Source of the DNA: Escherichia coli
Lineage (GTDB): Bacteria > Pseudomonadota > Gammaproteobacteria > Enterobacterales > Enterobacteriaceae
Length of the DNA: 64,000 bases
NCBI RefSeq assembly: GCF_050320075.1
Contig: NZ_CP190018.1
Direction: 5' to 3' (one strand)
This document shows, piece after piece, positions 57,565-57,753 of the stretch. A program made the position numbers and the translations under genes. How positions within the stretch are numbered: the stretch's first letter is position 1; every line of letters starts with the position of its first letter. Below the pieces are notes generated by a model, which was given only the letters and a program-made list of their open reading frames with translations, was not told where the DNA came from and searched no databases.

Positions 57565-57618
57565 GATTTGCCCTGTTGTAATAAATAGGTTGCGATCATT
57601 AATGCGACGTCATTATGC

Positions 57619-57645
57619 GTCAGATTTATGACAGATTTATGAAAA
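57619..57645 (-). promoter_or_regulatory. Pho box (PhoB binding site) of the phoBR promoter
   Basis: Minus strand reads TTTTCATAAATCTGTCATAAATCTGAC, two direct repeats of the CTGTCAT-type Pho box, 55-80 nt upstream of the phoB start. Confidence 0.8.
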
Positions 57646-57753
57646 GCTCGTCGCACATATCTTCAGGTTATTGATTTCCGTGGCGCAGAAAAAAGCAAAT
57701 GGCACATCTGTTTGGGTATAATCGCGCCCATGCTTTTTCGCCAGGGAACCGTT

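Follow-up and report, generated by a model that had tools for sequence, protein, structure and literature searches.

Divergent phoBR and sbcDC promoters in the phoB–sbcD intergenic region of Escherichia coli: a Pho-box promoter of phoBR directed away from a weak sbcDC promoter

The operons phoBR and sbcDC lie back to back on the Escherichia coli chromosome, phoBR on the minus strand and sbcDC on the plus strand of the window studied here (i.e., the whole stretch of 64,000 nucleotides that was analyzed, with positions counted from its first letter). The gap between phoB and sbcD extends from 57565 to 57753 and measures 189 bp, in agreement with a sequence-only reading of this DNA according to which the two promoters share less than 190 nt. 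The gap very probably consists of two separate promoters that fire divergently, a PhoB-autoregulated one for phoBR and a weak, PhoB-independent one for sbcDC. All elements of the control region were known before, and the region is real but ordinary. Its Pho box is a textbook case of response-regulator autoregulation, and the phoBR promoter of E. coli K-12 with its Pho box was reportedly described by Makino et al. in 1986 and 1988. Published data for this exact sequence already cover the sites of activation and auto-repression, the occupancy by ChIP-seq and the two transcription start sites (TSSs), and the present analysis adds little: a phylogenetic footprint, in which the sbcD TATAAT and a third Pho repeat are strongly constrained across Enterobacterales; extra upstream Pho half-sites that occur in relatives and are missing from Escherichia; and a correction of the wording 'double Pho box'.

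Over the 501 nt from 57400 to 57900, the window matches many complete E. coli genomes at 100% identity, with the annotation phoB and sbcD, and this stretch was found once each in 5424 of 5426 complete genomes of the species. Within it, a 51-nt core of the phoB promoter is identical in 5405 of 5419 genomes and a 57-nt core of the sbcD promoter in 4267 of 5424. PhoB, PhoR, SbcD and SbcC all passed their NCBIfam equivalog cut-offs, and RefSeq gives the same names on the identical stretch. A longer sbcD reading frame with a TTG start at 57712 was ruled out, because the mapped sbcD TSS at 57730 lies downstream of that codon. Compared with the phoB promoter of E. coli K-12, the stretch shows no differences; Pho box, -10 element, start site and auto-repression site are the same, and the sequence equals the K-12 promoter as printed in the TSS table of Kim et al. 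2012 (51 nt shown; PMC3415461). The sequence upstream of sbcD up to the mapped start is likewise identical to that of the E. coli sbcDC promoter in the same study. The source genome differs from MG1655 elsewhere; a PhoB site in cof, described below, is displaced by about 6 kb relative to where the MG1655 coordinates would put it. The coordinates of the features are listed in Table 1. No match to the 501-nt stretch turned up in two of the 5426 genomes, and of the 5424 records that contain it, one is labelled a plasmid instead of a chromosome.

Table 1. Features of the phoB–sbcD control region and its flanking genes in the 64,000-nt window
Feature	Position	Strand	Evidence or remark
phoR CDS	55522..56817	-	NCBIfam NF008235, 890 bits
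phoB CDS, 229 aa	56875..57564	-	NCBIfam PhoB equivalog NF007546, 540 bits vs cut-off 471; ATG at 57564
phoB 5' leader, 41 nt	57565..57605	-	Kim et al. 2012 TSS table; start at 57605
Weak PhoB auto-repression site, covers -10 (putative position)	57607..57627	+ (antisense to phoB)	coordinates deduced from published description
phoB -10 hexamer CATAAT (-12..-7)	57612..57617	-	mapped TSS; CATGAT mutant; conservation
Third, degenerate 11-bp repeat unit CTGACGCATAA	57613..57623	-	overlaps -10; +11 register 12.35 bits
Pho box (PhoB activation site), two tandem 11-bp units	57624..57645	-	PWM, consensus, ChIP-seq, conservation
Pho-box unit 1 TTTTCATAAAT	57645->57635	-	sequence
Pho-box unit 2 CTGTCATAAAT	57634->57624	-	sequence
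sbcD -10 hexamer TATAAT (-13..-8)	57717..57722	+	TSS 7 nt downstream; conservation
sbcD 5' leader, 24 nt, AUGCUUUUUCGCCAGGGAACCGUU	57730..57753	+	Kim et al. 2012 TSS table; start at 57730
Shine-Dalgarno GGGA of sbcD	57744..57747	+	sequence
sbcD CDS, 400 aa	57754..58956	+	NCBIfam SbcD equivalog, 641 bits; ATG at 57754
sbcC CDS	58953..62096	+	NCBIfam SbcC, 1930 bits; 4-nt overlap with sbcD

The phoB promoter was located from published experiments. The supplementary table of Kim et al. 2012 reports the phoB TSS with 18 reads and a 5'UTR of 41 nt, and the sequence printed upstream of it, which ends ...CTGACGCATAATGACGTCG (also ...CATAATGACGTCG), is identical to the window (PMC3415461). The -10 mutant described by Gao & Stock 2018 (PMC6194859) is 'CATGAT', from which it follows that the wild-type hexamer is CATAAT. 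The start site lies at the distance from this -10 element that is expected for a PhoB-activated promoter. No -35 element was identified: the expected place holds ATAAAT, and a sigma-70 two-hexamer scan of both strands returned no full promoter. The position of the -35 element is taken by the Pho box, at -40..-19 of the promoter. PhoB overlaps the -35 region, contacts sigma and the alpha C-terminal domains, and requires a strict spacing of its box to the core promoter for activation; as a rule, the Pho box lies 10 bp upstream of a sigma-70 -10 element. Here the classical 18-mer occupies 57628..57645 and ten bases (57627..57618) separate its end from CATAAT (57617..57612). The moderately conserved TTGATTT at 57671..57677 was rejected as a -35 element, there being no -10 element at a usable spacing; the block aligned to it is a Pho half-site in relatives that was lost in E. 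coli. A structured or known RNA in the intergenic region was also rejected, as no Rfam family matched there at E<=1.

The Pho box itself was placed by sequence and by scoring. The 27-mer TTTTCATAAATCTGTCATAAATCTGAC, which the sequence-only reading had put 55-80 nt upstream of phoB on the minus strand, is the exact reverse complement of 57619..57645 and lies 55-81 nt upstream of the phoB ATG. The classical consensus CTGTCATAWAWCTGTCAY, searched with up to three mismatches, has two matches in the 64-kb window (0.19 expected), both at phoB and in registers 11 bp apart. A position weight matrix (PWM) for PhoB was built from 57 ChIP-seq motif instances (Table 1 of Fitzgerald et al. 2023, PMC10294691); the two sites of the phoB region were left out of the training, which makes the scan an independent test. 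The site at 57627..57644(-) ranked first among 127,966 window positions with 21.16 bits (median of the training sites 14.8 bits, maximum 23.5), and the register shifted by +11 ranked eighth with 12.35 bits. Occupancy and function of the box are established by published experiments. A PhoB ChIP-seq peak with a score of 11 is centred at MG1655 position 417093, assigned to sbcD/phoB and given the motif TTTCATAAATCTGTCATA; at low phosphate, phoB RNA amounted to 32,731 in the wild type vs 34 in a phoB deletion, a significant difference of about 1000-fold (PMC10294691). The ChIP-chip study of Yang et al. 2012 also reported the PhoB motif at this box (PMC3465305).

By definition, a PHO box consists of two direct-repeat units of 11 nt, in each of which a conserved 7-nt segment resembling CTGTCAT is joined to 4 nt rich in A/T (PMC4415409). 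The two tandem units TTTTCATAAAT and CTGTCATAAAT, read from 57645 to 57624, have this structure. Since two such units make one PHO box, the 27-mer comprises one box and the first 5 nt of a degenerate third unit. The designation of the motif as a double Pho box is to be corrected accordingly; the second PhoB site known in this region is the weak auto-repression site over the -10 element, on the other strand. The third unit shares its TGACG with this antisense site, in which it forms the promoter-distal tract.

Auto-repression of phoB is likewise established by experiment. The model of Gao & Stock 2018 (PMC6194859) comprises one activation site, namely the Pho box, an extra half-site next to the downstream unit of the box, and, in antisense around the -10 element, a weak site with 5 bp between its tracts (EMSA KD 4.9 uM); mutation of the repression site relieved repression at high PhoB, and strengthening it deepened repression. 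In the present sequence, the sole arrangement that fits this description is CGTCA-5-CGTCA (aCGTCAttatg/gCGTCAgattt) on the plus strand, with half-sites of 5.46 and 3.16 bits, and we infer from the match that this is the repression site.

The sbcD start site also comes from experiment, a single high-throughput data set in which Kim et al. 2012 recorded it with 29 reads and a 5'UTR of 24 nt; the sequence printed upstream ends ...GGGTATAATCGCGCCCA and is identical to the window (PMC3415461). The hexamer TATAAT lies about 7 nt upstream of this start, as is characteristic of a sigma-70-type -10 element. The sequence-only reading had recognized this element and put it at 57714-57721, one base off: GGTATAAT occupies 57715..57722. 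Its estimate of about 35 nt between the hexamer and the sbcD start codon is a fair one, as TATAAT ends 31 nt before the ATG. With regard to a -35 element, GCAAAT, AGCAAA and AAGCAA at spacings of 16-18 bp (AGCAAA at 17 bp) each agree with TTGACA in at most two of six positions. There is no extended -10 motif TGn, since TGGG precedes the hexamer and puts the TG one position off, and the two-hexamer scan found no full sigma-70 promoter on the sbcD side. The lack of both a -35 and an extended -10 element fits a weak promoter. Entries for sbcD or phoB were not found in the SMRT-Cappable-seq supplements. Regulation of sbcDC was said by Darmon et al. in 2007 to depend on RpoS and starvation. Taken as a whole, the proposal of a Pho box for phoBR back to back with an sbcDC promoter is borne out, both elements having been placed from the raw sequence within one base: the box leads the PWM scan, and the published starts at 57605 and 57730 each lie at the expected distance from the proposed -10 elements.

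Conservation was determined on loci retrieved by searching for the first 17 phoB codons as a degenerate DNA pattern, which yielded 120 loci from contigs representing one genome per species, nearly all of them Enterobacterales. The footprint set consists of the 110 loci with a divergent sbcD within 900 nt (the others were mostly truncated loci or Photobacterium), with intergenic lengths of 173-569 nt. In every locus the best match to the PhoB matrix lay on the phoB-sense strand; these matches scored 15.6-21.2 bits and were mostly placed 50-67 nt from the ATG. The phoB core TCAYAAAnnTGAMGCATAMT, which spans Pho box, third repeat and -10 element, is present in all 110 loci; the third-unit tract TGACG is kept in 109 and the -10 element reads CATAAT in 95 and CATACT in 15. 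The promoter-proximal tract of the repression site is partly conserved, with GACG[TC] after the -10 element in 26 loci and GGCGn in 42 of the 110; since this tract is weakly conserved, the auto-repression feedback may be lineage-specific. Upstream of sbcD, at 20-75 nt from the ATG, TATAAT was found in 86 of 110 loci (2.1 in shuffled sequences) and TATA[AC]T in 106 (4.3 in shuffled sequences), at a median distance of 32 nt. When 65 short intergenic regions were aligned with MAFFT, two blocks proved conserved to at least 90%, one at about 57612..57645 (-10 element, third unit and Pho box) and one at 57716..57723 (TTATAATC), the latter being the only such block on the sbcD side; the flanks are poorly conserved.

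These observations can be combined into a model of two promoters. When phosphate is scarce, PhoR phosphorylates PhoB, and a PhoB~P dimer bound head to tail on the two tandem units recruits the sigma-70 holoenzyme, resulting in strong positive autoregulation of phoBR. Only at high PhoB~P are the third, degenerate unit and the weak antisense site over the -10 element filled; PhoB~P bound there blocks RNA polymerase and provides a negative feedback that caps the PhoB level. For sbcDC, a perfect and deeply conserved TATAAT lacking a -35 element would make a weak promoter, with low expression of the SbcCD nuclease and no response to PhoB. The two starts lie 125 bp apart. Relative to the sbcD start, the Pho box occupies -106..-85, and it is oriented toward phoB; this is probably too far for PhoB to contact sigma at sbcD or to repress sterically. 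RNA polymerase generally covers about -55 to +20 of a promoter, from which we infer that the two polymerase footprints are independent, with about 14 bp between them.

One alternative places sbcDC in the Pho regulon as a mildly repressed member, modulated by PhoB~P at the Pho box or by the roughly 1000-fold induced transcription of phoBR. Yang et al. 2012 listed sbcD as a new direct PhoB target on the basis of a ChIP-chip peak whose box lies at -117.5 from the start codon, of a log2 change of -0.64 on the microarray, and of a plasmid-borne luciferase fusion that differed significantly between wild type and phoB knockout (PMC3465305), and with the starts only 125 bp apart a coupling via supercoiling would be physically possible. 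This effect conflicts with complete independence of sbcD and with RNA-seq under phosphate limitation, in which sbcD gave 274 in the wild type vs 271 in the phoB deletion (not significant) and phoB changed about 1000-fold in the same samples (PMC10294691). Moreover, the Pho box is remote from the sbcD start and points toward phoB, and activation by PhoB needs strict positioning over the -35 region; Fitzgerald et al. considered the ChIP-chip study poor in resolution and unreliable in many of its calls. Regulation of sbcDC by PhoB is therefore considered unlikely. The best current data indicate that sbcDC is independent of PhoB, with room left for a small coupling effect.

A related possibility arises from the footprint. 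In 46 of 109 loci (0.15 in shuffled sequences), a Pho half-site TGT[CA]A[TC]A in phoB sense is located 40 +/- 1 bp upstream of the start of the main box, aligned to window positions 57671-57683; examples among loci L003-L115 are Salmonella (L086), Citrobacter (L099), Lelliottia (L016) and Kosakonia (L032). E. coli and E. albertii have CCACGGAAATCAA in its place. The distance of the half-site to the sbcD -10 element is variable (mostly 25-48 nt), which assigns it to the phoB side. A second complete Pho box of 9-16 bits, 19-20 bp upstream of the main box, was found in Kosakonia, Siccibacter, Mangrovibacter, Kluyvera and others (loci L032, L004, L043, L042, L025, L068, L093, L009, L096, L108 and others) and is missing from Escherichia. 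As TGACG is nearly invariant and most other Enterobacteriaceae carry extra Pho sites toward sbcD, PhoB occupancy might spread over the intergenic region and tie SbcCD to phosphate starvation, a coupling that would have been partly lost in Escherichia. We regard this as improbable; if true, the mild effect on sbcD reported by Yang et al. would be a residue of that coupling within E. coli.

Still less probable is a true double Pho box in E. coli, i.e., two complete PhoB-dimer sites in tandem that jointly activate phoB as at pstS. Such a structure would fit the two consensus matches, offset by 11 bp, the 12.35 bits of the second register and the near-universal TGACG of the third unit, and the second full box about 20 bp upstream in the genera named above makes a true double box there. 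In E. coli, however, the middle unit belongs to both registers, which gives three units, not four, and the intergenic region holds no other full site of at least 9 bits. The third unit overlaps the -10 element, and its occupancy should therefore hinder polymerase. Gao & Stock (PMC6194859) model a single activation site and show that added binding around the -10 element is repressive.

That the TATAAT before sbcD is a chance match, with transcription of sbcDC coming from elsewhere, such as a more distant upstream promoter or read-through, is barely credible: a single hexamer is without statistical weight, no -35 element accompanies it and the two-hexamer scan was empty, but its support comes from the mapped start with 29 reads 7 nt downstream (PMC3415461) and from the alignment, in which no other block toward sbcD is strongly conserved.

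Two separate promoters, one of them under PhoB control, thus remain the preferred reading, and the arrangement can be compared with known systems. The Pho boxes of pstS work by the same PhoB~P mechanism, with 11-bp units that replace the -35 element and lie 10 bp upstream of the -10 element. The pstS promoter carries two complete boxes (four units), whereas phoB has one box, one degenerate unit and an antisense repression site. The ChIP-seq motif at pstS is TGTCATAAAACTGTCATA, and pstS is the only PhoB site that was bound at high phosphate (Fitzgerald et al., PMC10294691). Other back-to-back divergent gene pairs of enteric bacteria likewise have non-overlapping core elements on opposite strands within one short intergenic region. 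In overlapping or face-to-face divergent pairs an operator is shared, whereas here, on the best data, the regulator site serves one promoter (PMC10294691).

Several lesser PhoB matches were noted in the window. The second-best PWM match, ATTCACAGCACTGTCATA at 57445-57462 (+), lies inside phoB in antisense orientation (15.96 bits) and coincides with an intragenic ChIP-seq peak at MG1655 position 417245; intragenic PhoB sites are regarded as transcriptionally inert by Fitzgerald 2023 (PMC10294691), and no usable -10 element was found downstream of this one. A very weak TSS (2 reads) at about 57465 (-), 99 nt into phoB and assigned to phoR, adjoins it (PMC3415461). The third-best match, TGTCAAAAAAATGCCACT at 820-837 (-) with 14.59 bits, lies inside cof (HMP-PP phosphatase; ORF 420-1250); it is absent from the 2023 ChIP-seq list (PMC10294691) and matches the intragenic 'cof' site in the ChIP-chip data of Yang 2012 (PMC3465305). 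An isolated strong antisense half-site TGTAATA in the phoB leader, at 57577-57583 (+) with 8.98 bits, is probably a chance match, because it is without a partner unit and poorly conserved.

Two further observations concern the sbcD leader and its surroundings. A terminator-like hairpin with a T-run (TGGGTATAATCGCGCCCA TGCTTTTT) at 57713-57730 (+) was rejected as a terminator; one such structure was found vs 0.6 expected, i.e., chance level, and it is not part of the sbcD transcript since it overlaps the -10 element and ends at the start site. The leader contains a U-rich motif, GCTTTTTTGCCAYGGAAC at 57732-57749 (+), that runs into the Shine-Dalgarno sequence and is moderately conserved in Enterobacteriaceae, with diverging flanks.
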